Assembly: GCA_021157845.1 (NCBI GenBank)
Contig: JAGGVU010000013.1
Location: 11,192-75,191 of the forward strand
DNA: 64,000 nt
Source of the DNA: Candidatus Aenigmatarchaeota archaeon
Lineage (GTDB): Archaea > Aenigmatarchaeota > Aenigmatarchaeia > GW2011-AR5 > JAGGXF01
Direction: 5' to 3'
Shown here one piece after another: positions 60-50,868 of this stretch. The translations under genes and the position numbers were made by a program. Every line of letters starts with the position of its first letter. Within the stretch, counting starts at the first letter, position 1. A model generated the notes under the pieces. It had not been told where the DNA came from. It ran no database searches and was given only the letters and a program-made list of their open reading frames with translations.

Positions 60-243
60 TGCGGTGACCGGGAATTTCACTACCATTTCTCTTTTACATT
101 CAAGCTTTTCTCTTTTTAAGAGAAAAGGTTGATTTGAACCCGAGTCTTAACCTTGGCAAGGTTATGTCCTAACCAAATTTTCCAGTCTTTTCCGCAAGCG
201 CTTTTGCGACGAAGTCGGAAAAGGGCTTCTAGACTATCACCGC
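60..243 (-). tRNA. tRNA-Gly(GCC) with two predicted introns (D-loop, T-loop)
   Basis: Reverse complement reads GCGGTGA-TA-GTCTAGA[~50 nt insert]TTGGTTAGGAC-A-TAACC-TTGCCAA-GGTTA-..-TCGGG-TTCAAAT[~58 nt insert]CCCGG-TCACCGC-A. Acceptor, anticodon and T stems pair. The anticodon loop is uninterrupted. Confidence 0.75.
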
Positions 244-452
244 ATTAGTTTATAATTAAAATACAACATATTTAAAAATCTTTAGATATCGTGAATTTAA
301 TAAAATTCACTTTTAGTTGTACGATAAATCCATATGCGGAAGAGAAGTGCAACGAGGTTTCCACATAAGTTGTGCTCAACATCCCAAGCATTAGCGAACA
401 TCTAATGCGAACGATCAAAAGAGATGAAGAGGTCAGCTGAAGCCTAGTGATT

Positions 453-1049
453 TTACTGTATTCTTCTTTTAAATTCTTCTATTATTTTTTCATATCCTTC
501 TCTTTGTACAATTTCCCATGATTTTTTATATTCTGGTAGAAAACTTATTAACTTTATATCTCGGATGAGTCTTTTTTTATCAAAAAATTTTAGATAAATG
601 TGGTTGTGAATCGCATGAAGAGGAATATGAATTCTTGTTGTGAGCGGCTCTTTTCTATATTTCCTGTTAATATAATCCCAGGCTTTTTTTGATTTTTCTA
701 TATTTCCTCTTTGGATAAACAATTGATGAATCAACTCGTGAACTAAAACATCAATAAAATAATCGGGCTTATCATAAACAGGTAATGTTAACGGATCAGA
801 GAACGGGATACATCTTCCAACTACATAACAATAAATAATTTTAGATTTCCATTTTAAACCAATCACTTTAGAAAGTTCCTTAAGGATATTTTTTTCATCC
901 TTCCTCCACAATTTCTCCACTTTCTCAATATAGTTCAGAATCTGTTTTGCAGAAGGATATTTATCTTTTTTTCTTTTGTAGATTTTAATCCATTCTTTCC
1001 AGTTTTGGTCATAAACCCATGAATATTTGAAAATAATTTTTGGTATCAT
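453..1049 (-). CDS. hypothetical protein with HExxH (VHELIHQ) zincin-like motif
   Basis: 198-aa ORF with a single HELIH motif. No other recognisable domain. Confidence 0.45.
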   Translation of the reverse strand: MIPKIIFKYSWVYDQNWKEWIKIYKRKKDKYPSAKQILNYIEKVEKLWRKDEKNILKELSKVIGLKWKSKIIYCYVVGRCIPFSDPLTLPVYDKPDYFIDVLVHELIHQLFIQRGNIEKSKKAWDYINRKYRKEPLTTRIHIPLHAIHNHIYLKFFDKKRLIRDIKLISFLPEYKKSWEIVQREGYEKIIEEFKRRIQ

Positions 1050-1275
1050 AGTTTATATAATAATTGTATATTATAAAAATCTATTTATCCTAGGCCGGCT
1101 AGGGTACGCTTTTATAAACTTAGTTTCGTTAACTCCTAAATTGTATAATACTCTAAACCAAAAACACCATATCTGAACTATGTGATTTTAAATCATAAAT
1201 TAGCTCACTACTCCGTTAGATATTTAAGGAAGTGGTTATAATAATCACTATCGGTAAACCTTAAAGGTGATATCT

Positions 1276-2184
1276 ATGAATGTATTTGACTTGATTATAT
1301 TGGGCGCTGGCCCGGCTGGCTTATCTGCAGCCATTTATGCAAGCAGGTATAATCTAAATTTTTTAGTTGTCAGAAAAGATAAGGGACTTGCATCAGAAAC
1401 AAATGAAGTTGAAAATTATCTTGGCATATATCCTGTGACAGGGTTAGAACTGACTAACAGATTTGAGACCCATGCAAAAAATTTTGGCACAAAAATAATT
1501 AACGAGGAAATTATATCAATTGAAAAGAAGGATAAGGCTTTTACGGTCAAGACCATTAACGGTGAGTATAAGTCAAGAGCAATAATATATGCAGTTGGTG
1601 GAAAAAAAAGAAAGCTTGAGGTTGAAGGAGAAAAAAAATTTATTGGCAAAGGCGTTAGTTATTGCGCAACATGTGATGCGCCATTTTTTAAAAATAAAAC
1701 AGTTGGTGTAGTTGGTGGAGCAAATGCAGCTGTTGAAGCTGCTCTGCTTTTATCAGAATTTGCTCAAAAAGTCTATATTATATATAGAAAGGATAAACTT
1801 AGGGCAGTTCCATACCTTGTGGAAAAAATTAAGCAGAGAAAAAATATAGAAGTCCTCTATAACAATACTGTAAAAAAAATAAACGGGAAAATTTCTGTTG
1901 AATCTGTCAAGTTGGATAATGAAAAAGAGCTTAAAATGGATGGACTATTTGTTGAAATCGGACATGTGCCAAATTACCAGTTGGCAGAAAAATTGGGCGT
2001 AAAAATATCAGAAGATAAAAGAGTGGTTGTTGATCAAAATATGTCGACAAATATAGCAGGATTTTTTGCTGCTGGAGATGTTACAACAGGGAGTAATAAA
2101 TTTGATCAAATAATAACAGCAGCTGCAGAAGGTGCAATCGCTGCTAGCGCTGCATATAAATTTATTTTAAAGGGAGATGATTAA
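1276..2184 (+). CDS. trxB: thioredoxin-disulfide reductase
   Basis: GAGPAG FAD-binding motif, CATCD redox-active dithiol, second GG(A)NAA dinucleotide motif, GD(V)T motif near the C-terminus. The ATG at 1276 sits 6 nt after GGTGA. The track start at 1267 is a GTG. Confidence 0.9.
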   Translation: MNVFDLIILGAGPAGLSAAIYASRYNLNFLVVRKDKGLASETNEVENYLGIYPVTGLELTNRFETHAKNFGTKIINEEIISIEKKDKAFTVKTINGEYKSRAIIYAVGGKKRKLEVEGEKKFIGKGVSYCATCDAPFFKNKTVGVVGGANAAVEAALLLSEFAQKVYIIYRKDKLRAVPYLVEKIKQRKNIEVLYNNTVKKINGKISVESVKLDNEKELKMDGLFVEIGHVPNYQLAEKLGVKISEDKRVVVDQNMSTNIAGFFAAGDVTTGSNKFDQIITAAAEGAIAASAAYKFILKGDD

Positions 2185-3402
2185 ATGAAAACATTTGACA
2201 TTATAAAGAAGAGGATAAACAGAGTTTCAAAACTTATGAACTTGAGTGATAGAGAAGTTGACGTTATTTTGTCCTATAAAAGAATAAAACATGCAAAATT
2301 GAATATAGGTGAAAAATCATATGAGGCCATGAGAATTTTACATAATGACGCTATAGGTCCCGGGAAAGGAGGCATAAGATACCATCCGGACGTATGCGAA
2401 GACGAAGTAAAATCACTTGCATTTTGGATGAGCCTAAAAAACTCTTTAGCAGGTCTGCCTTATGGCGGTGCAAAGGGTGGAATAAAAGTTAACCCAAAAA
2501 AATTAAATAAAAAGGAACTGGAGAAATTGAGTAGAGCATTTATAAGGGAATTTCACAATGTTCTTGGCCAAGATATAGACATACCTGCCCCTGATGTATA
2601 TACGAATTCAGAGATAATGGGCTGGATGTTGGATGAGTATGAAAAAATAAAAGGCAAACATGAACCAGGAATGATAACTGGAAAGCCACTATCACTTCAG
2701 GGGTGCAAGCTAAGAGCAACTGCAACTGCCAGTGGTGCATTTATTGTCTTGAAGGAGTTTTTAACAAAGATTGGCAAAAACCCATCTGAACTGTGCGTGT
2801 CTATCCAAGGCTTTGGAAATGCCGGCAAAAATATTGCAACTATGCTATATAAGGACGGATTTAAGATTATTGCTGTTGCTGATAGTAAAGGCGGAGTTAT
2901 TGATAAAGATGGGCTAGATATAACAGAAGTGATAAAAACAAAAGATGAGAAAGGGTCAGTCACAGAGTATGGTGACAAAAAAATAACGAATAAAGAGCTT
3001 CTGGAAATGGAAACGGATTTATTAATTCTTGCTGCACTTGAAAACCAGATTACAGAGAAAAATGCAGATAAAATAAAGGCAAAATACATTTTAGAAATAG
3101 CTAACGGTCCTGTAACAGAAGAAGCAGATGAAATACTATACAAAAGGAATATATCAGTAATACCAGACATTTTAGCAAATGCCGGCGGTGTTGTTGTCAG
3201 TTACTTTGAATGGGCCCAAAATAGAACAGGCAACATGTTTGAAGATGACTATCTTGAAAAAAGACTAAAAGATATTATGACATCCTCTTTCCAAAAGGTA
3301 TATGATATGCATAAAAAGAAAAAAATAGATATGAGAACTGCTGCATATATAATAGCAATAAAAAGAATTTTGGATGCAGAAAAAGCAAGGGGACGGTTGT
3401 AA
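2185..3402 (+). CDS. gdhA: glutamate dehydrogenase (Glu/Leu/Phe/Val dehydrogenase family)
   Basis: GPGKGGIRYHP and LPYGGAKGG catalytic motifs, GFGNAG Rossmann motif. The ATG directly follows the trxB stop codon. Confidence 0.9.
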   Translation: MKTFDIIKKRINRVSKLMNLSDREVDVILSYKRIKHAKLNIGEKSYEAMRILHNDAIGPGKGGIRYHPDVCEDEVKSLAFWMSLKNSLAGLPYGGAKGGIKVNPKKLNKKELEKLSRAFIREFHNVLGQDIDIPAPDVYTNSEIMGWMLDEYEKIKGKHEPGMITGKPLSLQGCKLRATATASGAFIVLKEFLTKIGKNPSELCVSIQGFGNAGKNIATMLYKDGFKIIAVADSKGGVIDKDGLDITEVIKTKDEKGSVTEYGDKKITNKELLEMETDLLILAALENQITEKNADKIKAKYILEIANGPVTEEADEILYKRNISVIPDILANAGGVVVSYFEWAQNRTGNMFEDDYLEKRLKDIMTSSFQKVYDMHKKKKIDMRTAAYIIAIKRILDAEKARGRL

Positions 3403-3560
3403 ACTGCTGAATTGCATCAACTTTGGCAGTAAATAATAATTCTGTATTATATGGGAAAAGTAAAACTGTCAGCTAAGCCTATTCAACAATTTGTTGATCT
3501 ATAGTGTATTTGGCGTTAAAGTCAGTTCTTGCCCTAATACAGCTATAGAAAAATATTTAT

Positions 3561-3593
3561 AAAAAATAAAAGGAAAAAATAAAAAAAATAAAA
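3561..3593 (-). terminator. oligo-T tract (archaeal-type terminator candidate) downstream of the 3599..4234 gene
   Basis: On the minus strand, several T-runs (T4-T8) start a few nt after the stop codon. Confidence 0.35.
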
Positions 3594-3598
3594 GATTA

Positions 3599-4234
3599 CT
3601 ACTTCTTGAACTTGTACTTCTTTATATAATTCTTTGAAATGTCTGAAACAGCATCCTTTAGCCCAAGTCCTAATGCAATTGCAAGTCCGAGACCAACCGA
3701 AGCGACAATGACTAATAGTATGTTAGATACTAGTCCGCTTGGCACTCCGAGAACTGGTAATGCTATAGCCACTGCAACATACATTATAAAGAAGAATATT
3801 AGTTTACCGACTATGTTAGAATATATTGTTTCTCCCTTTTTCACTTGTTCTTTTATGTATTCTGCAATCACATATGCTACAATTATAATCAATGCTGCAC
3901 CAATTATAGATGGTATAAATGTTGTAATTCTTACTATCCACCCTGATAATGTCGGAATCTGAAGAACATCTATCGCTGCTGAAATAAACGCAAGGTAAAT
4001 CCACCACCGTGTAATCAGAGCAAATATATCTGTCAGACTTACTCTTGGTTTAGCTGTTTCTGAAACATAGTAATCTAATTTAGCTCTCTGTAGTATGTGC
4101 TTTACAGCCTTGCCTACTAATTTGCCCACAAACAAACCTATTATTAATAAAATAAGTCCGCTTATAAATTTTGGTAAAAAACTTATAAAGTGGGCCCAAA
4201 GTAGACTCATCATGCTGATTGCCTCTATTTCCAT
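3599..4234 (-). CDS. multi-pass membrane protein, unknown function
   Basis: 211 aa with at least five long hydrophobic segments and a Lys-rich C-terminus. Confidence 0.6.
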   Translation of the reverse strand: MEIEAISMMSLLWAHFISFLPKFISGLILLIIGLFVGKLVGKAVKHILQRAKLDYYVSETAKPRVSLTDIFALITRWWIYLAFISAAIDVLQIPTLSGWIVRITTFIPSIIGAALIIIVAYVIAEYIKEQVKKGETIYSNIVGKLIFFFIMYVAVAIALPVLGVPSGLVSNILLVIVASVGLGLAIALGLGLKDAVSDISKNYIKKYKFKK

Positions 4235-4655
4235 TTTTTAACCTCCTTTAATTTAAATTGTATTAAGCAACCAAATACATGATTGCTCATTTTTATTAAC
4301 TTTTTCCCATTAATAAAGGTTTTGGTTTAGGCTTTTCTTACTGCATTCTGATAAAATTTATTGGAGTTTATGTTCAGAGTGTGTTAGATTTTTAATTAAT
4401 TTGTTACTATTGTGCTTATCAGATATAATTATATCTAAGAATGACGCCACATTTGTCTCTTTGATTAAAGTGGCTTCCATGCGCAACATGTTAGTGAGCC
4501 TATCTGTGCGTGGTTTTTGCAACTGAGCATAAATGTTATATGCTCAGAACACAAGCCGACTACTAACGTCGCGCCTAATATTCAGAGCACTCCAAACTTG
4601 AATAGCATCTGGAATATAATTATAAAATATTTGAACCTGAACTAGAACCCGCTAG

Positions 4656-5225
4656 TTAATGTTGTTGTTTTATTGGAAAAATTCCTTCAAGGCAGTAGAC
4701 AGTTAATTTGCCTTCACATTTATCTCTTTCACAGATTGGTGTCATATTACATAAAGGACACAACTTAACAGTTAGCTCATTTTTGTCTACTTCAAGGGTT
4801 CCTTGTTTATCATGCAATTTGTACAGGAGCTTGAGGTATTTACCTTCTGCAATTCTTGGCACTTTGTCCTTGTTTTTCAGCCCAACCCATTCATAGAGCC
4901 TTTTACCACCCTTGGATGAATTGCACTTCTTACAAACTTTTATTGCATTATCAGGAGTATCTGGTCCACCACAAGACTTTGGCAAAATATGCTCAACCGT
5001 CAAATTTTCTTTTGAGCCACAGTAAATACACTCATTTGGTTTCTCATGTTCCTTAATCCATTCTCTAATAGCAGTCGACCATTTTATCTTGCCATCTCTC
5101 AAGGCAATAAAACGATTCATCTGAAATGCTCTTTGATTTATACCAAATCCTGCAGACTTAGAAATTAGTTTAGCGTATTGCCAGAAAATTTCATCCTTTA
5201 TTGTTTTTACAACTGCCGGCGGCAT
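4656..5225 (-). CDS. HNH endonuclease domain protein
   Basis: [38 protein letters not shown] is a classic HNH (CxxC...H...N...H/CxxC) signature. There is an extra C-terminal Cys cluster. Confidence 0.8.
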
Positions 5226-5293: not shown

Positions 5294-5499
5294 CGCTGGG
5301 AGAGGGATTCGAACCCCCACGTGCATCCATATCAATCAGATAAATCTGATAAATACAATGGCACACTAGCTACCAAGTTTTCTCTGCAACCAGCGTAAAA
5401 CTGGTTCAGTGACTCATCATGTCCGCCGAGTCAGAGTCAAGCCATGTCTTCATCGAAAACCTCAAGGCTAGCGCGTTAACCTGGTTCCGCAATCCCAGC
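5294..5499 (-). tRNA. tRNA-Ser(UGA), type II, with a long anticodon-loop intron and a probable second insert in the variable arm
   Basis: Reverse complement: GCTGGGA-TT-GCGGAACCAGGTTAACGC-G-CTAGC-CTTGAG[~110 nt]A-GCTAG-TGTGC[~36 nt]GCACG-T-GGGGG-TTCGAAT-CCCTC-TCCCAGC-G. Confidence 0.7.
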
Positions 5500-5533: not shown

Positions 5534-5706
5534 CGCCGAGGGCAGGATTTTCACAAATCTTTCTTCGGTTTCAAGTTTCTTTGGGATCGAAGACCGACGT
5601 GCAAAGCACGTCAAGTTGTTTTCGAAATGGATTTGGTTCGAACCTGCACGTCCAGAGGACACACGGTCTCGAGCCGTGCGCGTTAACCTGGTTCCGCCAC
5701 CTCGGC
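5534..5706 (-). tRNA. tRNA-Ser(CGA), type II, with an intron in the T-loop
   Basis: Reverse complement: GCCGAGG-TG-GCGGAACCAGGTTAACGC-G-CACGG-CTCGAGA-CCGTG-TGTCCTCTGGACGT-GCAGG-TTCGAA[~88 nt]T-CCTGC-CCTCGGC-G. Confidence 0.75.
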
Positions 5707-7551: not shown

Positions 7552-8382
7552 ATGTATCTGATAATAGTAAGAGTTGGTGAAATTTTTCTGAAATCACCAT
7601 TTGTATTTGATCAGATGAAAAAACGGCTAGCTTATAATATCCGAAATGGACTGGCTGTACAAAACATAAAATCTAAGGTTTATGAGGATCATAGTAAAAT
7701 TTTTATTGAAACAAAAAATCTTAAAAAGACAGAAAAAATTCTTTGTCACACGTTCGGGGTTTCATCGTTCTCAGTTGTAAATAAAATAGATTCGGACATA
7801 AATAAAATTAAGGCGGTAACTAAAAAAATTGCAGCCAAATGGAAAGCCGGAACTAAGTTTGCCGTGAGAACGAAAAGAATTGACAAAACGTTCAGGTATA
7901 CAAGCGAAGAAGTTAATAAAAAGATAGGAAGAGTAATATCCAAGATGGGATTTGCTGTCGATTTAACCAATCCGGACAAAGAAATTTTTATAGATATTTC
8001 AAAGAAAACATATATCTATAGCGAAAAAATAAGTGGGCCTGGTGGGCTTCCGCTAAAGCAGGCGCGTCTGGAATGTGACCTAAGAAAAAAAGAAGATATA
8101 ATCGCGGCGTGGTTTATTATGAAGCGTGGGCTTCTGCCATACTTTTCAAAAAAAAGCAAAAAAAAATTGTTGCGAATTATTGAAAAATGGGCTGTTGGAA
8201 AAGAGCTACGGTTGCCGGACAAAAAAAAGAAAAAATATATGAAAGCAATAATATCTTCTGAAACTGATATTAATAAAATCAAGGCCCTTAAAGATAAAAA
8301 GAAAAAGGTTATTCTGACCCCATTAGTTGGGCTAAATAAAGAGCATATCAAAAATAAGATAAAAAATTTAGAATTATGCTGA
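7552..8382 (+). CDS. THUMP-domain ThiI-like protein with degenerate PP-loop
   Basis: The N-terminus (VRVGEIFLKS...) and ..GPGGLPL.. match the ThiI ferredoxin-like/THUMP region. Where ThiI has SGGxDS this protein has LRKKEDI. The C-terminal PLVGLNKEHI resembles the ThiI PLIGxDKxEI motif. Confidence 0.6.
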   Translation: MYLIIVRVGEIFLKSPFVFDQMKKRLAYNIRNGLAVQNIKSKVYEDHSKIFIETKNLKKTEKILCHTFGVSSFSVVNKIDSDINKIKAVTKKIAAKWKAGTKFAVRTKRIDKTFRYTSEEVNKKIGRVISKMGFAVDLTNPDKEIFIDISKKTYIYSEKISGPGGLPLKQARLECDLRKKEDIIAAWFIMKRGLLPYFSKKSKKKLLRIIEKWAVGKELRLPDKKKKKYMKAIISSETDINKIKALKDKKKKVILTPLVGLNKEHIKNKIKNLELC

Positions 8383-11041: not shown

Positions 11042-12574
11042 CTATACAACTACCTTTAGTAACATTTTTGTTTTTTTTGGCCGCCTAGATTTTATAATAA
11101 ATGAATCTTCATATGCATCCAACGCATTTTTCATTTTGATTTTATTTTCAGCATAAATTTTAAATAACGGTTCGCCATGTGAAATTTTATCACCTATTTT
11201 TTTAAATAACTCTATGCCAGCACCTTTGTCACCAGGACAGCCCGCAGCAATAGCTGTACGGACCAGATTCTTATTATGTATGTTATGGATATACCCAGAT
11301 TTTTTTGCCTTAACTATTCTTGTCTCTTTACCGACTCTTATATCCCCTATAGTCACCTTCTCATTTCCTCCTTGCTCTTTTATTATTTCTCTGAACTTTT
11401 TCTCTGCCAATCCAGAATTAAAAATTTTTACTGCCCTGGCCTTTCCTTCCTCAGCTGAGTAATCTTTGCCAACCATTTTGAAGAGGATACCGGAAAGTGA
11501 AGTTGCCTTGTCTATAAGGTCTTTTGACTTGCTATTTGAAAAAGTATTAAGTATATCTCTCGCCTCAAGAGCCGGACCCATTGAATAACCAAGAGGTTGT
11601 GAAGCGTTTGTAACAGCACATTCTATTTTCATGCCAAACCTTTTCCCGATTTTTATAAACTTCCGTGCAAGTTTGGACGCAACTGACATATCCTTTATTT
11701 TTGCCTGGGTAGGTCCCATTGGCATATCAAGAATAATATATTTAGATCCCATTACTTTTTTCTTTGCAATTATCGAGGGTATCATCATAGCATCAGAGTC
11801 TAGCGGATGTTCTATCTGTATAAATAGATCATCAGCAGGTGCGAGCTTGAATGACCCACCCCATATTATGCATCCACCGGTTTTCTTAACAGTCCTTCTT
11901 ATCGCTCTAGCATCAAGCTGGACAGGAGCAAAAATCTCAAATCTATCTGCTGTTCCTGCTGGATCAGTTATCGCGCGTGAAGAGCTTTTTGGTATAGTCA
12001 GGCCGGCTGCAGCAACTATCGAAACAAGTAATATGCTGGTCTTATCTCCGGGTATGCCACCTATGCTGTGTTTGTCAACAATTTTTCCTCTAAACGTAAA
12101 TTTTTCACTTGTATCTATCATTGCTTTAGTAAATCCGTACGCTTCAGAATCTGATAGGGGCCTAATATCAAATGATGAAATCAGAGAAGCAAGTGCAAGG
12201 TCGCTTAGTTTGTGCTCCAAAACATCATCGACTATCTGCCTTATTTTTTTATTGGTTAGTTCTTTACCGCGTATTCTTTCGCGGATGAATTTTTTTGAAT
12301 TGAGAAATGGTCTGGCCCGTACATCAACAATATCTCCATTCTTAATTTTAAGTATGTCATTCACATCATCGTATATAATTATTTCTCTGGGTTTTACTAT
12401 TTTTTCACTTGTGTTTACTATGCATGTTATGTCTTCTTTTTTGCTTTTGACTATTACACGCTCTAGTGGCTTAACAGCTAGCTTTTTTGCAGTTTTATTA
12501 TTAAGTATAACAATCATTTTTCCGCCAGATGTAAGTCCTGGCAAGCGTGCTTTTAGCTTCATATTTATCCCCAT
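11042..12574 (-). CDS. deoA: AMP phosphorylase (thymidine phosphorylase family with N-terminal extension)
   Basis: KHSIGGIPGDKTS phosphate-binding motif, ~500 aa with an N-terminal extra domain. Overlaps the upstream form III RuBisCO gene. Confidence 0.8.
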   Translation of the reverse strand: MGINMKLKARLPGLTSGGKMIVILNNKTAKKLAVKPLERVIVKSKKEDITCIVNTSEKIVKPREIIIYDDVNDILKIKNGDIVDVRARPFLNSKKFIRERIRGKELTNKKIRQIVDDVLEHKLSDLALASLISSFDIRPLSDSEAYGFTKAMIDTSEKFTFRGKIVDKHSIGGIPGDKTSILLVSIVAAAGLTIPKSSSRAITDPAGTADRFEIFAPVQLDARAIRRTVKKTGGCIIWGGSFKLAPADDLFIQIEHPLDSDAMMIPSIIAKKKVMGSKYIILDMPMGPTQAKIKDMSVASKLARKFIKIGKRFGMKIECAVTNASQPLGYSMGPALEARDILNTFSNSKSKDLIDKATSLSGILFKMVGKDYSAEEGKARAVKIFNSGLAEKKFREIIKEQGGNEKVTIGDIRVGKETRIVKAKKSGYIHNIHNKNLVRTAIAAGCPGDKGAGIELFKKIGDKISHGEPLFKIYAENKIKMKNALDAYEDSFIIKSRRPKKTKMLLKVVV

Positions 12575-13785
12575 TTATCTAGTGCTTGTTTAAGTTCTTT
12601 ATGTGCCTTGGCGTATTTTTTTAGATTAATCTTTTTCATTGAAGCGATTAGTGCCTGTTTCATGGCTTTTGCTCCAGCCCTGGTTCCAGCAGGATGCCCG
12701 TGAACTCCGCCACCGGCCTGTATAACGATGTCATTTCCAAGTATTTTTACGATTTGCGGAACCAACGAAGGATAAACGCCACCAGAAGAAACAGCAAAAA
12801 CGGGTTTAATGTTAAACCATTGCTGTTCAAGATAACTGGATGGCTTTACGTGTTGATACTCAATCATATTTTTTATCAGCACAATTTCCTTTTTATCACC
12901 TTCCATTTTCCCAACTGCTGTTCCTATATGCAGTTGGTCAACACCTATTAGACGAGAGAGTTTAGCAATAACATACATAGAAATCCCGTGCTTCTTATTT
13001 CGCGTAAATGTTGCATGCCCTGCCCGATGAGCATGTATAACCATTTTATAGTTCTGGTTTCTGATCTCCTGCAAGGCCGACCAGCCTGCTGATAGTATAT
13101 CAACCATTATACACTTGCCGCCATGCTCTTTAACAAAGTCAGCCCTTTCAATCATTGTTTTCATTGGAGCTGTTATGTTTGCCGCATATAAAACATTTCT
13201 GCCCTCTTCCTCTTTTATTTTATCTGCCATATCCAATGTATTTATAACCCTGTCTTCAAATTTGCAGAATTTCATTGATGTTAAATTTTCATCATCTTTT
13301 ACAAAATCCAATCCTCCTTTCCAAGCATTATATGCTACAGTTGCCCATTCCTTTGCATTTAGACCAACCTTTGGTTTTACAATTGTTCCAAGATGGGGGC
13401 GAACCTTTGTTTTTATTAATCTTCGAACGCCGCCTATGCCAAATGCAGGGCCTTTGAAAGACTTGATATATGATTTTGGAAATTGTATATCAACAAGACG
13501 TAAATTTTTTAAGAGCTTCATACCAAAAACATTTCCACCCAAACTTGACATGAGCTGTGGAACACTTCCAAACTCAAATAAATCTGAAGGATAAGCAATA
13601 TCAACAGTTTTATTTTTTTTGGAAATTTTCATAATTTTCGGTGATAATTTTTTTTGTATTTTTCTAGTTAAGGTTTTTATTTCTGTCCAAGTTCCAATTG
13701 AGGATTCTGCAGCTATCTGTTGCACGGCCCTTTCCCGACTAACAGAAGCAGTTTCAAAATAATATCTCGCGGTTATAAAATCCAT
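12565..13785 (-). CDS. rbcL: RuBisCO large subunit, form III-like
   Basis: GGLDFVKDDE (carbamylated Lys site), VKPK, HAHRAGHA, SGG and GGGVHGHP motifs are all intact. Confidence 0.9.
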   Translation of the reverse strand: MDFITARYYFETASVSRERAVQQIAAESSIGTWTEIKTLTRKIQKKLSPKIMKISKKNKTVDIAYPSDLFEFGSVPQLMSSLGGNVFGMKLLKNLRLVDIQFPKSYIKSFKGPAFGIGGVRRLIKTKVRPHLGTIVKPKVGLNAKEWATVAYNAWKGGLDFVKDDENLTSMKFCKFEDRVINTLDMADKIKEEEGRNVLYAANITAPMKTMIERADFVKEHGGKCIMVDILSAGWSALQEIRNQNYKMVIHAHRAGHATFTRNKKHGISMYVIAKLSRLIGVDQLHIGTAVGKMEGDKKEIVLIKNMIEYQHVKPSSYLEQQWFNIKPVFAVSSGGVYPSLVPQIVKILGNDIVIQAGGGVHGHPAGTRAGAKAMKQALIASMKKINLKKYAKAHKELKQALDKWG

Positions 13786-13789
13786 GATC

Positions 13790-14608
13790 TCACCTCAATA
13801 TCGCCAAAATATCCTTTGGCTTTTTTATTCCATCCTCCATAACTACGCCTGTTATATAACGCCACGGAGTTATATCAAAGGCCGGATTGATAATCTTTAC
13901 GCCTCTTATTTTTTTATAAACTTCAGATGGCGGCCTTATCTCTATTTTCACTTTTTTCCTTTTATCTATCTTGAATTTTGAGCCGACAACATAAAACGGT
14001 ATATTACTTTCAGACGCAGCAAGTGCCAGAAAGTAGGTACCGATTTTATTTATTACTCCCTCTTTTCGCATGGCGTCGCAACCAACTATAATTATATCAT
14101 CTTTTGGAATAACTGGATCTGTAAACGCTAGCGTTGCTGCATTGTCCTCTATTAATGTTACTGATATATTTTTTATTTTTGCAAGTTCTTTTGCTGTCTT
14201 TATGCCTTGTTGTCTTGGCATTGTTATATCTGCTATGACTGAAAATTTCTTTTTTTTAGCTGCCTCCTTAATGACAGCCAAAGCTTCTGATGAATGACAG
14301 TGGGTATGAACATGGTATCCCCTTTTTATCAACTGTTGACCAGTTGCGGCTATTAATTCAGTCGCCTTATCCAATTCTGCTAAAAGTTTGTCTATCGTTT
14401 CTTTTCGTTTATCTCTCCTAAGCTCATTAATAACATTGTAAAGGACAACTGCTGTCGATCTGGCAGATAAAAGCTTTTTACATTCCTTGTCAAACTCATG
14501 ACCAAATCCGTGAATTCGGGAAAATTTTTTAAGATGCCTGAGCGAAGCAGTTGCAATCTCTTTAGCTCCTTGAATTTTCAGTGATTTGATATCTTGAATA
14601 ACTGACAT
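13790..14608 (-). CDS. ribose-1,5-bisphosphate isomerase (eIF-2B alpha/beta/delta-like, e2b2)
   Basis: eIF-2B-family sequence (VHTHCHSSEA.., GCDAM..G.V.NK.GT) placed immediately upstream of rbcL and deoA on the minus strand. Confidence 0.75.
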   Translation of the reverse strand: MSVIQDIKSLKIQGAKEIATASLRHLKKFSRIHGFGHEFDKECKKLLSARSTAVVLYNVINELRRDKRKETIDKLLAELDKATELIAATGQQLIKRGYHVHTHCHSSEALAVIKEAAKKKKFSVIADITMPRQQGIKTAKELAKIKNISVTLIEDNAATLAFTDPVIPKDDIIIVGCDAMRKEGVINKIGTYFLALAASESNIPFYVVGSKFKIDKRKKVKIEIRPPSEVYKKIRGVKIINPAFDITPWRYITGVVMEDGIKKPKDILAILR

Positions 14609-16109: not shown

Positions 16110-16288
16110 AGCGAGGTGGGAGAGTTGAACTCCCTTCTCCCGGTTTCTGCTTCTTTTGACTGAATTTCTTCGGTTTTGGATCCAACCTTTTTTAAAGGTT
16201 GTTTTTGACTGAACTTCTTCGGTTTTGGATCCAACCTTTTTTAAAGGTTGGCCTGCAGCCGGGTGCATAACCGTTCTGCCAACCTCGC
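16110..16288 (-). tRNA. tRNA-Cys(GCA) with a ~108-nt anticodon-loop intron
   Basis: Reverse complement: GCGAGGT-TG-GCAGAACGGTTATGC-A-CCCGG-CTGCAG[intron]A-CCGGG-AGAA-GGGAG-TTCAACT-CTCCC-ACCTCGC-T. Confidence 0.75.
16153..16250 (-). repeat. 49-nt tandem direct duplication (47/49 identical) inside the tRNA-Cys intron
   Basis: Unit 16153-16201 and unit 16202-16250 differ at two positions. Each unit contains the hairpin CAACCTTT-AAA-AAAGGTTG. Confidence 0.9.
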
Positions 16289-19616: not shown

Positions 19617-20024
19617 TTAGAATCGTCTCGACAAAACAGCCAGAGCATGACCTTTTGTTTCTAGAGCCCATTTCTTAATCCAGCCAAATGGTATTGAGTC
19701 AACCTCATAACCATCTGCTTTAAGCGCCTTTTTAAGATCTTTTAAAAATTTTATTGCAAATTTCGGAGATGACAATTCAGGAGACAAATGCGCAAATGGA
19801 AAGAGAACTATATGTTTCGCTCCAACTTTTTCAGCTATAGTTATTATTTCTTTTTTGGCTGTTTTTAATAAATCTTCTTTATCTTTTTTTTCTACACAGG
19901 TTTTCACGACAAGGCAATTATTTATTTGTCTGGCTTTCTCATTATCTGACAAATTTTCCGCTATTTTTGTTTTCTTACTAACCTCGTATCTTATCCAAGA
20001 AGCGTGTATGAATAACAATTGCAT
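19617..20024 (-). CDS. free-standing archaeal ThrRS-type editing domain (tRNA-Thr-ED / DTD-like)
   Basis: MQLLFIHAS..YEV...FPFAHLSPELSSP..A...L......GYEV...PFGW.K......KGHALAVLSR matches the N-terminal editing domain pattern of archaeal ThrRS. Confidence 0.75.
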   Translation of the reverse strand: MQLLFIHASWIRYEVSKKTKIAENLSDNEKARQINNCLVVKTCVEKKDKEDLLKTAKKEIITIAEKVGAKHIVLFPFAHLSPELSSPKFAIKFLKDLKKALKADGYEVDSIPFGWIKKWALETKGHALAVLSRRF

Positions 20025-30640: not shown

Positions 30641-30898
30641 CGCCCCTGACGGGAATTTCAGAGCCTTTTCAGATTTTTTCATTGAAGCTTTTTTCTAAAA
30701 AGGCTCATTTGAACCCGCGACTTCTTGCTTTATCCGACAAAAGTTCTGATCATCCTTTACTAAAAGTAAAGTCACTTCACCTCCTTGTCTTCATCTTAGG
30801 AGGCAAGCACTCTATCCAAATTCCTCCACCATTTTATTTTTCCGCCAGCGCTTTTTCACTGGTTTCACAAATAAAAGGGCTGTCTGAGTTACAGGGGC
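30641..30898 (-). tRNA. tRNA-Arg(CCU) with three predicted introns (D-loop, anticodon loop, T-loop)
   Basis: Reverse complement: GCCCCTG-TA-ACTCAGA[~63 nt]TTGGATAGAGT-G-CTTGC-CTCCTAA[~66 nt]GCAAG-AAGTC-GCGGG-TTCAAAT[~52 nt]CCCGT-CAGGGGC-G. Confidence 0.7.
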
Positions 30899-38572: not shown

Positions 38573-38831
38573 ATTTACTTTATCCACAAAGTGGATATTT
38601 ATTAGCAGGTACTTTAAATAATTCGGCTCGCGGGCGGACTTCTCCGCTCATTTCACCCACTCGACCCTAACGGGACAACTAACACTTATTATGCAAGATT
38701 TTCCTAACAGGTCGCATAATAGTCATTTTTGCCTTCTCAATCAGAAATAAAAACATCGGCCTTTGCTACACATTAAGTTATCCAAAAAGAAGTGAAAAAA
38801 GTATAAAATCCACTGACTTTAAAAATATTAG

Positions 38832-43287: not shown

Positions 43288-43941
43288 TTACATTTTTGCC
43301 AAAACAAAACAATGGTCTTTCTGATATGGGCTCAGCTCAATTTCACTTTCTATTTTAAATCCCGCTTTTTTTAGTTTTTTTATTTCCTGCTTGTAAACAT
43401 CTTTAGGTGATTTTACAACATCAATGCTTTGCGATTTTATGGCGAGCATGAGATATCCGCCGGGTTTTAAAAATTCTTTACAGTTTCTTATTGCTATTTC
43501 AGTTTCATCTGGCTGTGAAACGTCAACATAAACCAAATCAACTTGCTCAACATATGGATATTCTTCCGGCTTTCTCGCGTCCGCCATTATCGGCATTATA
43601 TTTTTTCTTTCTTTTACCACCTTTATTAGCTCTCTCATCATTCTCTCCGCAAATTCAATCCCGTATATTAACCCACTTTTTCCAATTATATCGCTTACAT
43701 GACTTGCTGTTGTTCCAGCGCTTATTCCTAAATATAAAATTACAGAGCCGGACTTAATGGGAAATATTTTTAATCCGTTTAAAATGGCTGCTGCCAACTT
43801 TGAGCGTGTTGGATCCCATTTTCTATATTGAAAACCATGCACGTCGATAAGTTTTTCTCCATATACTCGTATATGTGGTGTGAGATTTTGGGTGTAAATA
43901 TTATTACCTTTTCTTAAAATGGTGTCAAATATTTTTTTCAT
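43288..43941 (-). CDS. flpA: fibrillarin (rRNA/tRNA 2'-O-methyltransferase)
   Basis: Fibrillarin pattern: WDP.RSKLAA, VLYLGISAGTT.SHVSD SAM-binding motif. Confidence 0.9.
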   Translation of the reverse strand: MKKIFDTILRKGNNIYTQNLTPHIRVYGEKLIDVHGFQYRKWDPTRSKLAAAILNGLKIFPIKSGSVILYLGISAGTTASHVSDIIGKSGLIYGIEFAERMMRELIKVVKERKNIMPIMADARKPEEYPYVEQVDLVYVDVSQPDETEIAIRNCKEFLKPGGYLMLAIKSQSIDVVKSPKDVYKQEIKKLKKAGFKIESEIELSPYQKDHCFVLAKM

Positions 43942-44930
43942 TTTCTCATCTTCCTCATAGCCCGCTCCAATTCTTCTTTCAATTTTGGCTCAAACCGATT
44001 TGAATAAAAATCTATTCTTGCCGCCATCATAAGCTTTGACGAAACCAGCCTTGCAATTTTTCCTCTTATATGTTTTGGGGAATTTTGAATGTATTTGCTC
44101 ATGAAAATCAGGCCATATTTAGGAGACTTGATATGTTTCTTGTTTCTCAGGTGCCTGAATAATGCTTTCTCTGCTCCAAGAATCTGAATGGTTGACGACG
44201 AAAGCTTGGCCAGATTTTGTAAGGAACCGGCTTTTGACAACAGCCTAGCACCCAAAAGTGGATCTACAAGTGATGAAATGTTCGGACATATTTCTTTCAT
44301 AGAATTTTTGATATAATCCTCAATTTGCTTTCTCATTGCAATGGCCTGACATATAAAATAGGCATATTTTTTTACTATTTCTTCATCGCACTTGTCAAAT
44401 TTTATTCCTGTTGATTTTCTGAACTTGGGTATATTTTCTCTGGCCCCATATTCTGATACGATTTTTGCATATTTTTCATTATCTGCCTTTAACTCTGGAT
44501 AGTGCAAGCCAAACCATTCGGTTAGATGTTCTGAAAAAACATTTATCTGTTTTGTTAACTCATCTAAAGTGTTGGACGCCTGTATAATTAATTTGTCTTT
44601 TGTAATAGAAATACTGGCATTTGCGTTAGTTAATAAAATACCGAGCTCAGAAAGGAACCTATTCAGATCGCTATTTGTTTTGGCAAATCCAAGGCTTATT
44701 GCATAATCTCTAAAGTTTTCTCTCATAAATTTTAATGCTATTTTGTCTTGCTTAATTTCATACCCAGACAGTGATTTTAGAAAACTCTGAGAAAAGTTCC
44801 CAGTTAATTTTTTAAAGGCATTTTCTGCATTAGGCGAAAAAAGCTCGTAATAAATTAGCCTGCCTTTACTATCAAAAGCGAAAAACCCTATGGTTGACTT
44901 GCATATATGTGCAACCTGCTTTTTAGACAT
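43938..44930 (-). CDS. nop5: Nop56/58 (Nop5) C/D box sRNP core protein
   Basis: NOP domain motifs (LGA.KALFRHL...PKYG.I). ATGA overlap with flpA. Confidence 0.85.
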   Translation of the reverse strand: MSKKQVAHICKSTIGFFAFDSKGRLIYYELFSPNAENAFKKLTGNFSQSFLKSLSGYEIKQDKIALKFMRENFRDYAISLGFAKTNSDLNRFLSELGILLTNANASISITKDKLIIQASNTLDELTKQINVFSEHLTEWFGLHYPELKADNEKYAKIVSEYGARENIPKFRKSTGIKFDKCDEEIVKKYAYFICQAIAMRKQIEDYIKNSMKEICPNISSLVDPLLGARLLSKAGSLQNLAKLSSSTIQILGAEKALFRHLRNKKHIKSPKYGLIFMSKYIQNSPKHIRGKIARLVSSKLMMAARIDFYSNRFEPKLKEELERAMRKMRK

Positions 44931-46258: not shown

Positions 46259-46267
46259 AATAAAAAG

Positions 46268-47437: not shown

Positions 47438-47449
47438 AAATAATAAAAA

Positions 47450-47619
47450 TGCGCCTGGGCAGAATCGAACTGCCGATCTCCGCCATTCTTAGAATCATGT
47501 TTACACCAAAGCTTTTTCCTAAAAAGGCTCATGTGAGGGCGGTGTCATACCATTTTCCCCATCTTGCTCTTACACTAATCCTTTTCTAACGCTTTTTAAA
47601 AGGGTTAGACCACAGGCGC
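47450..47619 (-). tRNA. tRNA-Val(CAC) with two predicted introns (D-loop, anticodon loop)
   Basis: Reverse complement: GCGCCTG-TG-GTCTAA[~52 nt]TGGTATGAC-A-CCGCC-CTCACA[~46 nt]T-GGCGG-AGATC-GGCAG-TTCGATT-CTGCC-CAGGCGC-A. Confidence 0.7.
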
Positions 47620-48270: not shown

Positions 48271-48355
48271 AATTAAACTATAATGTTGTAAATATAAAAT
48301 CTTTGCTATACAAAAAATAACTATATTTTTAAACTTTACTACAGATTTTTATTTA

Positions 48356-49471
48356 GTGTTTGATATGAAATTTATAATCGATATCAGCAATTATAATGGA
48401 AAAAACGAGAGAATAACTGGATTTAAGAAGATGCACGATGCCTCGCTGAATATACCAACACCAATAAAAATTCTAACACACGAAGGATTTTTATACTTTA
48501 AAAAATATGGCATGAAAGAAGAACTGAAAAATGAGATAAAAGATGTATTTAAAGAGATAAAAACAAAAAATCCCAAAAAAGGAGTCGCTGTAAGACGAGC
48601 TTATTTTGTTCCGGGGTTAGAAAATCCACCAGGTCCACGCTCTTCTGCTGTAGAGGATTTAAAAACAGCAATAGAAAATGTGAAGAAAATATTAAAATTT
48701 GCAATAGAAAACAAATTTGACAAGAAAGGTTCTGAAATAGAAGTTTTTTTTCACCCGTTCATAAATCCAAAAATACCTTCTAGTGGCGGATGCGTAACCC
48801 CAAATGAAAATTACATACTAATAGAAGCAATATATGGAAATGACGAATCAGTTCAAAGCTTTCCGCACGACAAATATAAGATTGATATCGAGAAAAAGGA
48901 AATTTTGAATAAAAAGGTGGAAAAAAAGGAGAAAACTCTTTCCGCAACAGGAACCGAATACAGAGAAGTAGACATACCAAAAAAATTACAAACCAAACAA
49001 GTTCTAACAGACGAGCAAATAATAAAGATAGCGGAAATGTGGAAAAAATTAAGTCTTTTATTTGGACCCCATAGGCTAGAATTTGACATAATTGACAATA
49101 AAATATTTTTCATAGAGTGCACCGCCTTTAAATCAGAAAAGTTAGAGAAAAAATACAGAAAAATGACAAAAGGTTACATAAAGAGAATAAAAACTGATTC
49201 TGATATAAATAATATACGTGGATGTAAAATAATTTTTATAGACCCAGAAGTGATAAGAAAACGAAAAATGGGAATTTTAACAAAATTGGCCTGTACGCTA
49301 CCAAAAAATACAACCATTCTTTTTCCTGGTTCGGCAACTACTGCCCACGCTTCTATAATATTCAGAGAAATGGGACATAATTTAATATACACAGGAAATA
49401 GGGTCTTTAAAGATGGAGAAAAGGTGCGTATAGAGGATAAAGAGGAACCGCGGGTTTTTAAAGATGATTGA
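48356..49471 (+). CDS. PPDK_N-like ATP-grasp domain fused to a PEP-utiliser (phosphohistidine swivel) domain
   Basis: The central region resembles the PEP synthase/PPDK nucleotide-binding domain. The C-terminal PGSATTAHASIIFREMGHNLIYTG resembles the mobile His domain. Confidence 0.55.
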   Translation: MFDMKFIIDISNYNGKNERITGFKKMHDASLNIPTPIKILTHEGFLYFKKYGMKEELKNEIKDVFKEIKTKNPKKGVAVRRAYFVPGLENPPGPRSSAVEDLKTAIENVKKILKFAIENKFDKKGSEIEVFFHPFINPKIPSSGGCVTPNENYILIEAIYGNDESVQSFPHDKYKIDIEKKEILNKKVEKKEKTLSATGTEYREVDIPKKLQTKQVLTDEQIIKIAEMWKKLSLLFGPHRLEFDIIDNKIFFIECTAFKSEKLEKKYRKMTKGYIKRIKTDSDINNIRGCKIIFIDPEVIRKRKMGILTKLACTLPKNTTILFPGSATTAHASIIFREMGHNLIYTGNRVFKDGEKVRIEDKEEPRVFKDD

Positions 49472-50336
49472 TTTTGGAAGAGAATTGATCAACTTAAACG
49501 ATACTAATTTAATAGATAAAAACACAATTGGGCCAAAGGCATATAGGCTTGCTGAGCTTAAAAATATTGGTCTAAATGTTCCGAATGCTTTCTTCATTTC
49601 TAGTGTAGTTTTTGATGAATTTATTTTGCAAAGTGAAGAGCTTCAAGAGCTTATAACAAAGCTCATAAAATCAGAAGATTTGGAAGATAGGCTAAAAATC
49701 GCAGATGAAGTTAAAAAAAATATAATGAAGGTGGAATTTCCCGAAAAGATGAGAATAAAGATAATTCAAAAATTTGAAGAAAATAAATTTTCTAAAGTTT
49801 CTGTTCGGTCCGCTGCTTTATGTGAAGATACAAAAAATCTTTCATTTGCCGGTCAATTCAAAACATTTTTGAATGTGGAAAAGGAGCAGATTATTGAAAG
49901 TATTAAGAAATGCTGGGCATCCCTCTTCTCTAAACAAGTCATGCTTTACGCATATTATAATAATATTGATTTTCACGAATTAAAAATGTCTGTAATTATA
50001 CAAGAAATGATACAGGCTGAAAAGGCAGGTGTGATGTTTACAAAAAATATCAAGAATGGAAATATAAATGAATTATTAATTGAATTTTCCAATGGTTTAT
50101 GTGAAAATATAGTATCTGGAATTGTAAATCCAAGTATCATAATAATAGAAAAGAAGAGCGGAAGGATATTGCAAAAAAAACTCATAAATAAAAATTCTAT
50201 ATCAGATAAAGAAATAAAACTGATATATGAAGCTGGGTTAAAAATAGAAAAAAATTACGGATCGCCGCAGGATATAGAATGGTCTATTCTAAGCAATAAG
50301 CTTTTTATACTGCAAACAAGGCCAATAACAACCTAA
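49464..50336 (+). CDS. PEP synthase/pyruvate phosphate dikinase N-terminal (PPDK_N) domain protein
   Basis: GPKAYRLAELKNIGLNVPNAF, VRSAALCEDTKNLSFAGQ, and DIEWSI...LFILQTRPIT at the C-terminus. Confidence 0.7.
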   Translation: MIDFGRELINLNDTNLIDKNTIGPKAYRLAELKNIGLNVPNAFFISSVVFDEFILQSEELQELITKLIKSEDLEDRLKIADEVKKNIMKVEFPEKMRIKIIQKFEENKFSKVSVRSAALCEDTKNLSFAGQFKTFLNVEKEQIIESIKKCWASLFSKQVMLYAYYNNIDFHELKMSVIIQEMIQAEKAGVMFTKNIKNGNINELLIEFSNGLCENIVSGIVNPSIIIIEKKSGRILQKKLINKNSISDKEIKLIYEAGLKIEKNYGSPQDIEWSILSNKLFILQTRPITT

Positions 50337-50453
50337 TGATATTGGTCGTATTATGAACTTATACGGTGAATAAACTCTTCCGTCGAACATAAAATTCTTT
50401 AGAAATGAACTAACAAAAAGATAAAAATAAAAAAAACGGGTTAGTGCGCCCAA

Positions 50454-50546
50454 CTACTTTCTCTTTTTCTTCTTTTTTGTTTTTTTCTTTGCTTTTTTCT
50501 TTGTTTTTTTCTTTGCTTTTTTCTTAGCCTTTTTCTTCTTGGCCAT
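50454..50546 (-). CDS. candidate 30-aa poly-lysine peptide (MAKKKKAKKKAKKKTKKKAKKKTKKKKKRK)
   Basis: An ATG lies 6 nt downstream of AAGGAGTGA and the frame is open to a TAG. It is not in the track (under 60 aa) and could also be a non-coding purine-rich tract. Confidence 0.35.
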   Translation of the reverse strand: MAKKKKAKKKAKKKTKKKAKKKTKKKKKRK

Positions 50547-50694
50547 TTTATATCACTCCTTGAAAATTTTTTAAATAATCTAATTCAATAGTGTACTTTA
50601 CTAGTATATATAATTTTCTGTTATTTGATTTTGAAAAATTATAAGAGAACTAACTCGAAAATTTATTAATTTCAATAAAAATTTTGAATTAAAA

Positions 50695-50868
50695 TGGGCC
50701 CGGCGAGATTTGAACTCACGCTCTCCAGTTAGCTCAGCCATTTCAGGCAGGTCAAATTTGTGCCTGAAAGTCGTATAAGACTGGCGCTTTAATTGCCCAA
50801 ACTTTTCTTTTCCATTGAAGCTTTTCTTTTTGAAAAAGAAAAGGTTCACCAGGCTAAGCTACGGGCCC
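50695..50868 (-). tRNA. tRNA-Ile(UAU) with two predicted introns (D-loop, anticodon loop)
   Basis: Reverse complement: GGGCCCG-TA-GCTTAGCCTGG[~57 nt]TAAAGC-G-CCAGT-CTTATA[~43 nt]A-ACTGG-AGAGC-GTGAG-TTCAAAT-CTCGC-CGGGCCC-A. Confidence 0.65.

Follow-up and report, generated by a model that had tools for sequence, protein, structure and literature searches.

The window analyzed here, i.e., the whole 64-kb stretch of contig JAGGVU010000013.1 (G+C content, ~33%), has an archaeal gene content and contains seven tRNA genes, all of which are located on the minus strand between positions 60 and 50868 and are interrupted by inserts of 31 to 108 nt, 13 in total (Table 1). The genes were identified using a scan written for the analysis, which required a 7-bp acceptor stem, an adjoining 5-bp T-stem, and a TTCRA-type T-loop start, with a gap of up to 450 nt. 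The scan, which would miss a tRNA split within a stem, led to the identification of exactly seven credible matches. These are the same seven genes, with the same outer coordinates, that a first-pass annotation made from the sequence had described as interrupted without exception. Standard tools performed poorly on these loci. ARAGORN called no tRNA on either strand of the window, and Rfam, run at gathering and permissive thresholds, missed six of the seven genes and returned only tRNA-Ile(UAU) (50868..50695, minus strand; RF00005, 45.7 bits), in whose alignment inserts of 63 and 44 nt were placed in the D-loop and the anticodon loop, respectively. Neither program identified an uninterrupted tRNA on either strand. 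No split or permuted tRNA genes were found; all seven genes are colinear within 170 to 258 nt.

After the 13 inserts were cut out in silico, ARAGORN called all seven tRNAs (i.e., Gly-GCC, Ser-UGA, Ser-CGA, Cys-GCA, Arg-CCU, Val-CAC, and Ile-UAU), and the spliced products are canonical tRNAs whose discriminator bases fit. All seven anticodons agree with those read previously, and the earlier insert counts (two, two, one, one, three, two, and two, in the order of Table 1) and locations were reproduced gene by gene. Five inserts occupy position 37/38 (Ser-UGA, Cys, Arg, Val, and Ile), three lie in the T-loop at 59/60 (Gly, Ser-CGA, and Arg), three in the D-loop at ~15/16 (Gly, Arg, and Val), one in the D-loop at ~19/20 (Ile), and one in the loop of a variable arm (Ser-UGA); thus, 8 of the 13 sites are noncanonical, in agreement with the earlier remark that most of them are. 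Each gene has an A/T-rich TATA-like box at about -25 to -40 and a T-run downstream, and none encodes CCA. Archaea generally decode AUA with a CAU tRNA that carries agmatidine, and a UAU anticodon is known from a few lineages (e.g., Nanoarchaeum and Korarchaeum); the UAU anticodon of the tRNA-Ile described here may indicate a loss of TiaS.

Very probably, all seven loci are functional and belong to a low-GC archaeon of the DPANN superphylum, and their colinear precursors each carry one to three short introns of the bulge-helix-bulge (BHB) type. 

Table 1. Interrupted tRNA genes, their introns, and other tabulated features. Motifs are given as base pairs in the outer/central/inner helix; ΔΔG (kcal/mol) is the cost of forcing the motif in the local fold.
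Feature	Position	Strand	Site; length	Family or module	Motif	ΔΔG	Remarks
tRNA-Gly(GCC)	60..243	-					3 exons, 2 introns; scan, ARAGORN on spliced product
Gly intron 1	178..228	-	D-loop ~15/16; 51 nt	A (AAGCCCUUUU..AAAAGCGCUUGCGGAAAA)	weak HBh'-like, 1/3/2	7.6	junction +/-1 nt
Gly intron 2	74..132	-	T-loop 59/60; 59 nt	B	hBH, 5/4/1	0.1	outer helix is the T-stem; central helix UUCA/UGAA
tRNA-Ser(UGA)	5294..5499	-					3 exons, 2 introns; scan, ARAGORN on spliced product
Ser(UGA) intron 1	5372..5460	-	37/38; 89 nt	box C/D-like layout	5/2/5	8.8	two U.U mismatches in central helix; cut below listing cutoff of motif scan, helices read directly from the sequence
Ser(UGA) intron 2	5325..5355	-	variable-arm loop; 31 nt		strict hBHBh', 5/4/3	4.0	spliced variable arm GUGCC-AUU-GGCAC
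tRNA-Ser(CGA)	5534..5706	-					2 exons, 1 intron; scan, ARAGORN on spliced product
Ser(CGA) intron	5548..5636	-	T-loop 59/60; 89 nt		strict hBHBh', 5/4/6	0.4	
tRNA-Cys(GCA)	16110..16288	-					2 exons, 1 intron; 20 nt upstream of cysS; identical copy on independent ENA/JGI contig L001
Cys intron	16145..16252	-	37/38; 108 nt		hBH, 5/4/0	0.7	two tandem 49-nt units at ~16153-16250, each hairpin CAACCUUUAAAAAAGGUUG plus tail
tRNA-Arg(CCU)	30641..30898	-					4 exons, 3 introns; orthologs L087, L090, L113, L114, L115
Arg intron 1	30821..30883	-	D-loop 15/16; 63 nt	A	1/3/2	0.7	
Arg intron 2	30730..30796	-	37/38; 67 nt	K-turn (box C'/D'-like) hairpin	BHB, 5/3/7		
Arg intron 3	30655..30707	-	T-loop 59/60; 53 nt	B	strict hBHBh', 5/4/13		
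tRNA-Val(CAC)	47450..47619	-					3 exons, 2 introns; orthologs L091, L111, L110
Val intron 1	47553..47604	-	D-loop 15/16; 51-52 nt	A-like	central helix 3/4	8.7	3' junction +/-1 nt
Val intron 2	47486..47531	-	37/38; 46 nt	B	BHB, 5/3/3		
tRNA-Ile(UAU)	50695..50868	-					3 exons, 2 introns; Rfam RF00005, scan, ARAGORN on spliced product
Ile intron 1	50793..50848	-	D-loop ~19/20; 56 nt	B	hBHBh', 3/4/4 (or 4/4/3 one nt over)	0.1	
Ile intron 2	50731..50773	-	37/38; 43 nt		hBH, 5/4/1	2.2	
Fibrillarin and Nop5	43288-44930	-					adjacent genes; box C/D ribonucleoprotein proteins
AAAGCG-N4-CGGAAA	178-228	-		A			in Gly intron 1
AAAGCG-N4-CGGAAA	30821-30883	-		A			in Arg intron 1
AAAGCG-N4-CGGAAA	L114 4708-4723						
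AAAGCG-N4-CGGAAA	L114 14913-14928						
AAAGCG-N4-CGGAAA	L114 20665-20680						

Motifs at the exon-intron junctions

In a BHB motif, the central helix joins four exon nucleotides, the last of which lies two positions before the 5' cut, to four intron nucleotides that likewise end two positions before the 3' cut; both cuts are made within 3-nt bulges, directly 3' of the second bulge nucleotide. In the window, this geometry was validated by the Cys, Ile, and T-loop introns. We scored all candidate site pairs by the number of base pairs in the outer, central, and inner helices and found a BHB-type motif in 10 of the 13 introns; the first-pass annotation had suggested looking for BHB or relaxed motifs at these junctions, and the remaining three are weak. 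Four of the 10 introns have a strict hBHBh' motif (the Ser-CGA and Arg T-loop introns, the Ser-UGA variable-arm intron, and the Ile D-loop intron), and the other six have an hBH form or a central helix with three of four pairs. Among the latter, the Gly T-loop intron and the Cys and Ile 37/38 introns are of the hBH type with little inner helix, and the Arg and Val 37/38 introns have a single mismatch in the central helix. The Arg D-loop intron has a motif score as weak as those of the Gly and Val D-loop introns, yet little energy is needed to form its motif. In the local fold, the forced motif costs at most 0.7 kcal/mol for six introns and 2 to 4 kcal/mol for four.

The T-loop introns provide a further line of evidence. 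All seven that we found, from four genomes, are inserted exactly at 59/60 and have a perfect 4-bp central helix, which is formed by T-loop nucleotides 54 to 57 and an intron YGAA. Nucleotide 57 covaries with the intron (A-U in three introns, G-C in three, and G.U in one), as seen in a comparison of the T-loop class. The D-loop introns constitute a separate class of the HBh' type, in which the central helix is drawn from the 5' strand of the D-stem, the outer helix has 0 to 2 bp, and the inner helix pairs CCC or ACC at the 5' end of the intron with GGG or GGU near its 3' end. In relatives, D-loop introns have inner helices of 6 to 9 bp, much better than the copies in the window; for example, the ortholog of the Val D-loop intron at the L110 locus, which is inserted at the same site, has a full central helix (4/4) and an inner helix of 6 bp, and its better motif was used to choose the favored cut of Val intron 1. 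These features support the view that the inserts behave as archaeal BHB-type introns, which would be spliced by proteins.

Related genomes and intron families

The most likely host is a low-GC DPANN archaeon, specifically an aenigmatarchaeote. The best named homologs (61 to 64% identity) of the PIN-ATPase-KH protein, whose gene adjoins that of tRNA-Arg, come from metagenome-assembled genomes (MAGs) of Candidatus Aenigmatarchaeota (DPANN), and homologs with 70% and 66% identity were found in two other relatives, whose contigs are syntenic with the window. In a scan of genome contigs with CysRS, the best hit among the matches listed was 53% identical and came from Theionarchaea, which says little about close relatives in the Genome Taxonomy Database (GTDB); a metagenome scan with isopentenyl phosphate kinase returned same-species contigs and distant archaea only; and a search with ApgM yielded no relative above 48% identity. 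Loci fetched in these searches are designated by L-numbers (e.g., L001, L087, and L090), of which L114 is GCA_016187335.1.

Exons and inserts of these genes evolve very differently. Compared with a 98 to 99% identical strain, tRNA-Val differs at 0 of 72 exon positions and 7 of 131 intron positions; compared with a relative whose neighboring kinase is 83% identical, it differs at 1 of 72 exon positions versus 57 of 131 intron positions (Fisher p=2e-12), and both introns are kept at the same sites. The presence of individual introns varies in tRNA-Arg(CCU), which has one intron in L090, two in L087, and three in the window. The L090 ortholog contains only the 37/38 intron (Rfam, 52 bits), and its intact T-loop matches the 59/60 splice; the L087 ortholog contains the 37/38 and 59/60 introns. 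Arg intron 1 is thus missing from both orthologs and Arg intron 3 from that of L090. The intronless D-loop of L087 (AGUUUGGAUA) is exactly the spliced sequence predicted by the 15/16 cut of the window gene and thereby fixes the Arg D-loop junction.

Interrupted genes were also identified in named, more distant Aenigmatarchaeota (GCA_039091535.1, GCA_016187335.1, and one contig present in both JGI and NCBI), including an Arg(CCU) gene with three introns, a His gene with a D-loop intron, and a Ser gene with D-loop, 30/31, and 59/60 introns. A tRNA-Ser at positions 20490-20748 of L114 has an intron at 30/31 in place of 37/38. An apparent second insert of 13 nt was observed in the D-arm of the tRNA-Arg at positions 11874-12031 of L115. 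In the DNA fetched from seven related genomes, all 16 identified tRNA genes are interrupted, with a total of ~32 introns, and ARAGORN called no tRNA lacking an insert at these loci; more distant archaea recovered in the same searches have ordinary tRNAs. Interruption of every tRNA gene is therefore a lineage trait. The earlier statement that the set is 100% interrupted holds for the window (7/7) but does not describe a peculiarity of it.

Many of the introns fall into families. We compared introns pairwise against shuffled sequences (maximum score of 23 in the window and 21 to 23 overall) and obtained family scores of 29 to 59 across all comparisons. Within the window, two families have scores of 29 to 53: family A comprises the Gly and Arg D-loop introns, joined outside the window by the His D-loop intron of L114, and family B comprises the Gly and Arg T-loop introns, the Ile D-loop intron, and the Val 37/38 intron. 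Gly intron 1 scores 31 against Arg intron 1 and 39 against the His intron (null maximum of 21), and Gly intron 2 scores 53 against Ile intron 1. The first 23 nt of Val intron 2 match Arg intron 3 at 22 of 23 positions (score of 41), and the same intron scores 59 against its L110 ortholog, whose own hairpin cassette is common to the Cys intron (score of 44). The motif AAAGCG-N4-CGGAAA was found in five copies (two in the window and three in L114), all in noncanonical tRNA introns, and nowhere else in the window or the 115 fetched loci; in these data, the remaining intron motifs, too, occur only within tRNA genes, and a scan of viral contigs for the family A motif found none. The motif sits in a scaffold (AGCCCUUUU..hairpin..AAAAGCG..CGGAAAAG) shared by two genomes distant from each other, and the 5' arm of the scaffold can pair with either of two downstream segments. 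A reading of the family A motif as a kink turn (K-turn; GA across the 5' splice site, a stem, and GCG-GA) was dropped because the 5' GA is missing from those members of the family that lie in T-loops. Because families are common to different tRNAs, sites, and genomes, we infer that the introns have multiplied through duplication or transposition, in the way that has been proposed for Thermoproteales.

The surroundings of the tRNA genes include several other features. An HNH endonuclease open reading frame (ORF; 4656-5225, minus strand) lies immediately downstream of the tandem tRNA-Ser genes. Directly downstream of CysRS and tRNA-Cys, an AMP phosphorylase gene is clustered with genes for a RuBisCO large subunit, presumably of form III, and for a member of the IF-2B family, presumably ribose-1,5-bisphosphate isomerase (11042-14608, minus strand); together they correspond to the archaeal AMP salvage pathway. 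Downstream of tRNA-Ile, a small ORF of ~30 codons (~50455-50546, minus strand) with an SD-like GGAG upstream consists almost entirely of Lys/Ala/Thr repeats (MAKKKKAKKKAKKK...). Several genes appear to be split, namely those for PPDK, whose PPDK_N domain extends over two overlapping ORFs (48356-50336, plus strand; split also in the 98% strain), for ThiI, whose THUMP and PP-loop domains are 8 kb apart (7552-8382, plus strand, and 16328-16954, minus strand), and for ThrRS, of which a free-standing editing domain is encoded at 19617-20024 (minus strand). Among the relatives, L114 encodes an IleRS-like class I synthetase with an intein domain at positions 1-3888. The intergenic region 4465-4660 (minus strand) folds much better than shuffled sequences (z=-3.9; 0/200) into a rod closed by a 7-bp stem (GCGCGAC/GUUGCGC); it has no Rfam match and may represent an unannotated small RNA. 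A hidden tRNA in 4230-4665 was rejected for lack of an Rfam family match, and a GC-rich stretch (38590-38790) was rejected as an RNA candidate, having no Rfam family and folding no better than shuffled sequences.

Proposed splicing pathway, alternative explanations, and known systems

From the intron anatomy, junction motifs, conservation, covariation, presence/absence pattern, and families, all of which are read from the sequence, a maturation pathway can be proposed. Each gene would be transcribed from its own archaeal TATA-type promoter to a T-run terminator. In the precursor, exon nucleotides beside the insertion site (i.e., nucleotides 32 to 35 for 37/38 introns, T-loop nucleotides 54 to 57 for 59/60 introns, and D-stem nucleotides 10 to 13 for D-loop introns) would base-pair with the 3' portion of the intron, which yields the 4-bp central helix of either a BHB motif or a relaxed hBH or HBh' form. 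We infer that EndA cuts within the two 3-nt bulges and that an RtcB-type ligase joins the exons; CCA would be added last, as none is encoded. A broad-specificity endonuclease would be required because 8 of the 13 introns are noncanonical and several motifs are relaxed, so tRNA maturation in this organism probably depends, as suggested previously, on a relaxed-specificity endonuclease and a ligase.

Several observations weigh against interpreting the loci as BHB-spliced tRNA genes of an aenigmatarchaeote. Three of the 13 introns (the Gly and Val D-loop introns and the Ser-UGA 37/38 intron) have poor motifs, with 2 or 3 of 4 central pairs and a forcing cost of 7.6 to 8.8 kcal/mol. For Gly, Val, and Ile, the D-loop junction is ambiguous by 1 to 2 nt, as alternative cuts also give products accepted by ARAGORN. 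Genes for EndA and RtcB were looked for in the window without success, and the genes called at the related loci include none with the Pfam families of these two enzymes. Finally, the taxonomic placement rests on best protein matches of only 46 to 70% identity.

Other explanations of the inserts were considered. If the loci were decaying pseudogenes hit by small repeats and never spliced, with functional tRNAs encoded elsewhere, the failure of standard finders and the repeat-like families of inserts would be expected; this is nevertheless very improbable, given that the tRNA-Val exons are nearly unchanged in both relatives while the inserts diverge, that removal of each insert restores a full cloverleaf, that BHB covariation is present and promoters and terminators are intact, and that the window and the DNA fetched from six related genomes contain no uninterrupted tRNA. 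Assembly or chimera artifacts, which could be suspected in a window stemming from a metagenome assembly, have a negligible probability, as the same interrupted genes occur on independently assembled ENA, JGI, and Logan contigs and orthologous interrupted genes in NCBI MAGs. We attach equally little credence to the proposal that the inserts are expansion segments kept in the mature tRNA or self-splicing introns of group I or II. The tertiary contacts of G18/G19 with the T-loop would be lost if inserts were retained in the D- and T-loops. As for ribozymes, the inserts have just 31 to 108 nt, compared with the at least about 200 nt expected of such introns, and matched no Rfam intron family at an E value of ≤10, although introns of group I have been described from the rRNA genes of DPANN archaea (PMC6125680).

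A further proposal, which would complement BHB splicing, holds that the introns are not passive but are modular mobile RNA elements with L7Ae-type K-turns or C/D guides that assemble L7Ae, Nop5, and fibrillarin on the precursor, where they would guide 2'-O-methylation (Nm), either in the host tRNA or in a different RNA, or would assist BHB folding in the manner of a chaperone, before or after excision. We regard this as possible but doubtful. Its best evidence is the 37/38 intron of tRNA-Arg(CCU), which in all six genomes compared (the window, L087, L090, L113, L114, and L115) conserves the arrangement GAGGUGA-N-[NNGA]-hairpin-[G/U]AU-GA. The hairpin is wholly different in sequence in each genome but remains paired in all six through compensatory changes; the pair flanking the tandem G.A (4n.4b) is Watson-Crick in five of six genomes, with four pair types, and U.U comes next in four of six. 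This is the signature of a box C'/D'-type K-turn. The Ser-UGA 37/38 intron has a box C/D-like layout, with a terminal stem (GUUUUC/GAAAAC) followed by C (AUGAAGA), a 12-nt spacer, D' (CUGA), C' (AUGAUGA), and D (CAGA) boxes. Because fibrillarin and Nop5 are encoded in the window, the organism presumably has box C/D ribonucleoprotein (RNP) machinery. K-turn-like hairpins are enriched in number (30 observed versus 8.9 +/- 3.1 in shuffled sequences), a difference inflated by the fact that shuffling destroys ordinary helices too, and a conserved scaffold motif is common to different genomes.

Against this proposal, the terminal C/D pair of the Arg intron is degenerate, and terminal C and D boxes are degenerate or missing in several orthologs; family A and B introns have no convincing K-turns; and no L7Ae was found among the scanned window ORFs of at least 100 amino acids. 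The putative D' guide of the Arg intron pairs with nucleotides 28 to 36 of its own tRNA (seven Watson-Crick and two G.U pairs), which by the N+5 rule places the target at nucleotide 31, not to our knowledge a known Nm site. GAGGUGA itself is presumably complementary to the conserved 3' end of 16S rRNA; the window contains no rRNA gene. No methylation target of the putative Ser-UGA guide was found in the window, nor any other convincing target there. A box C/D guide role of the Arg and Ser-UGA introns is accordingly a lead rather than a finding, even with the precedent of the tRNA-Trp intron, which guides Cm34 and Um39 (PMC7994747). A weak SNORD45-like C/D box match (26239-26310, minus strand; 29 bits, E=0.16, below gathering), falls within a 1,638-amino-acid ORF of the same strand and probably arose by chance. 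A broader version, which we consider unlikely, is that nearly every tRNA gene of this lineage is kept interrupted by a few modular mobile BHB introns that have a function, with the load upheld by selection or active mobility instead of drift. The modules, conserved between genes, sites, and genomes, would include the AGCCCUUUU..AAAGCG-N4-CGGAAA scaffold, hairpin cassettes rich in A/U, and the Arg K-turn (box C'/D') unit. They might recruit L7Ae, Nop5, and fibrillarin for modification of the host tRNA or of the 3' end of 16S rRNA, serve as folding switches through which relaxed splice sites are offered to EndA, or promote intron spread.

Interpreted as BHB-spliced tRNA genes, the loci bear on both annotation and evolution. 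Standard finders miss such genes (ARAGORN detected 0/7 and Rfam 1/7), and the missed tRNAs affect completeness estimates and inferences on codon usage or tRNA import; PMC5829648 attributes incomplete tRNA sets in new DPANN genomes to probably undetected disrupted genes, and the tRNAs reported as missing may largely be genes of the kind described here. Extreme intron loads and intron families, previously described mainly in hyperthermophilic Thermoproteales, now extend to a low-GC DPANN lineage, and the series of one, two, and three introns in one tRNA-Arg gene across three related genomes is tractable for dating gain and loss. From the D-loop 15/16 introns, which are HBh'-like and nearly without an outer helix, one would expect the EndA of Aenigmatarchaeota to be of broad specificity. 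After tRNA-Trp, the K-turn-bearing Arg intron may be a second case of a tRNA intron that houses an RNP module. What distinguishes the present set is its completeness in the sampled DNA, its low-GC DPANN host, the recurrent D-loop 15/16 site, and conserved intron modules including the K-turn.

Ectopic and multiple tRNA introns are known from Cyanidioschyzon merolae and nucleomorphs (PMC3728597 and PMC4090602), which share with the window introns in the D- and T-arms, up to three introns per gene, and BHB-dependent recognition; those hosts are eukaryotic, many of their introns have 3 to 24 nt, and permuted genes are absent here. The archaeal pre-tRNA-Trp intron is a box C/D guide RNA (Clouet-d'Orval 2001 and Singh 2004; summarized in PMC7994747). 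The introns described here resemble it in their 37/38 position, K-turn and C/D-like elements, a guide-like stretch complementary to the anticodon arm of the host tRNA, and the presence of Nop5 and fibrillarin. They differ in their hosts (Arg-CCU and Ser-UGA), degenerate terminal boxes, and a predicted target of the putative guide at nucleotide 31.

Among DPANN archaea, EndA types alpha4, (alpha-beta)2, and epsilon2 have been reported, and the L3-loop-bearing alpha4 type has been tied to increased tRNA disruption in several lineages (Kaneta et al. 2018, PMC5829648); ARMAN-2 has a broad-specificity epsilon2 EndA (PMC3239211 and PMC3488258). The disrupted tRNA genes of these archaea belong to the same superphylum and likewise have noncanonical and multiple introns with relaxed motifs. 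The four newly analyzed DPANN members named in the accessible part of PMC5829648 are Pacearchaeota, Woesearchaeota, Nanohaloarchaea, and Mancarchaeum, without Aenigmatarchaeota, and the available text of the three papers does not mention intron families or intron-borne K-turns; our literature search found no earlier description of tRNA introns in Aenigmatarchaeota. The comparison of the window with Thermoproteales and ARMAN-type archaea in the first-pass annotation was apt, and increased disruption of tRNA genes in several DPANN lineages was already on record in PMC5829648.

A close parallel is provided by Thermoproteales, in which multi-intron tRNA genes and intron transposition have been described (Sugahara 2008 and Fujishima 2010; reviewed in PMC4090602 and PMC4033280). 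As in those archaea, the genes of the window have up to three BHB-type introns, many of the sites (59/60 among them) are noncanonical, over half of the genes contain more than one intron, and near-identical introns occur in unrelated tRNAs at both canonical and noncanonical sites. Unlike Thermoproteales, which are hyperthermophilic crenarchaea, the host is a low-GC (33%), presumably mesophilic DPANN archaeon; the recurrent D-loop ~15/16 site is missing from the site list in PMC4090602; the intron families are kept between genomes that are ~64% identical in a conserved protein; and all 16 tRNA genes identified in the sampled DNA of related genomes are interrupted. Multi-intron BHB tRNA genes with transposed intron families are thus a known archaeal phenomenon, which is found here in a near-complete form.

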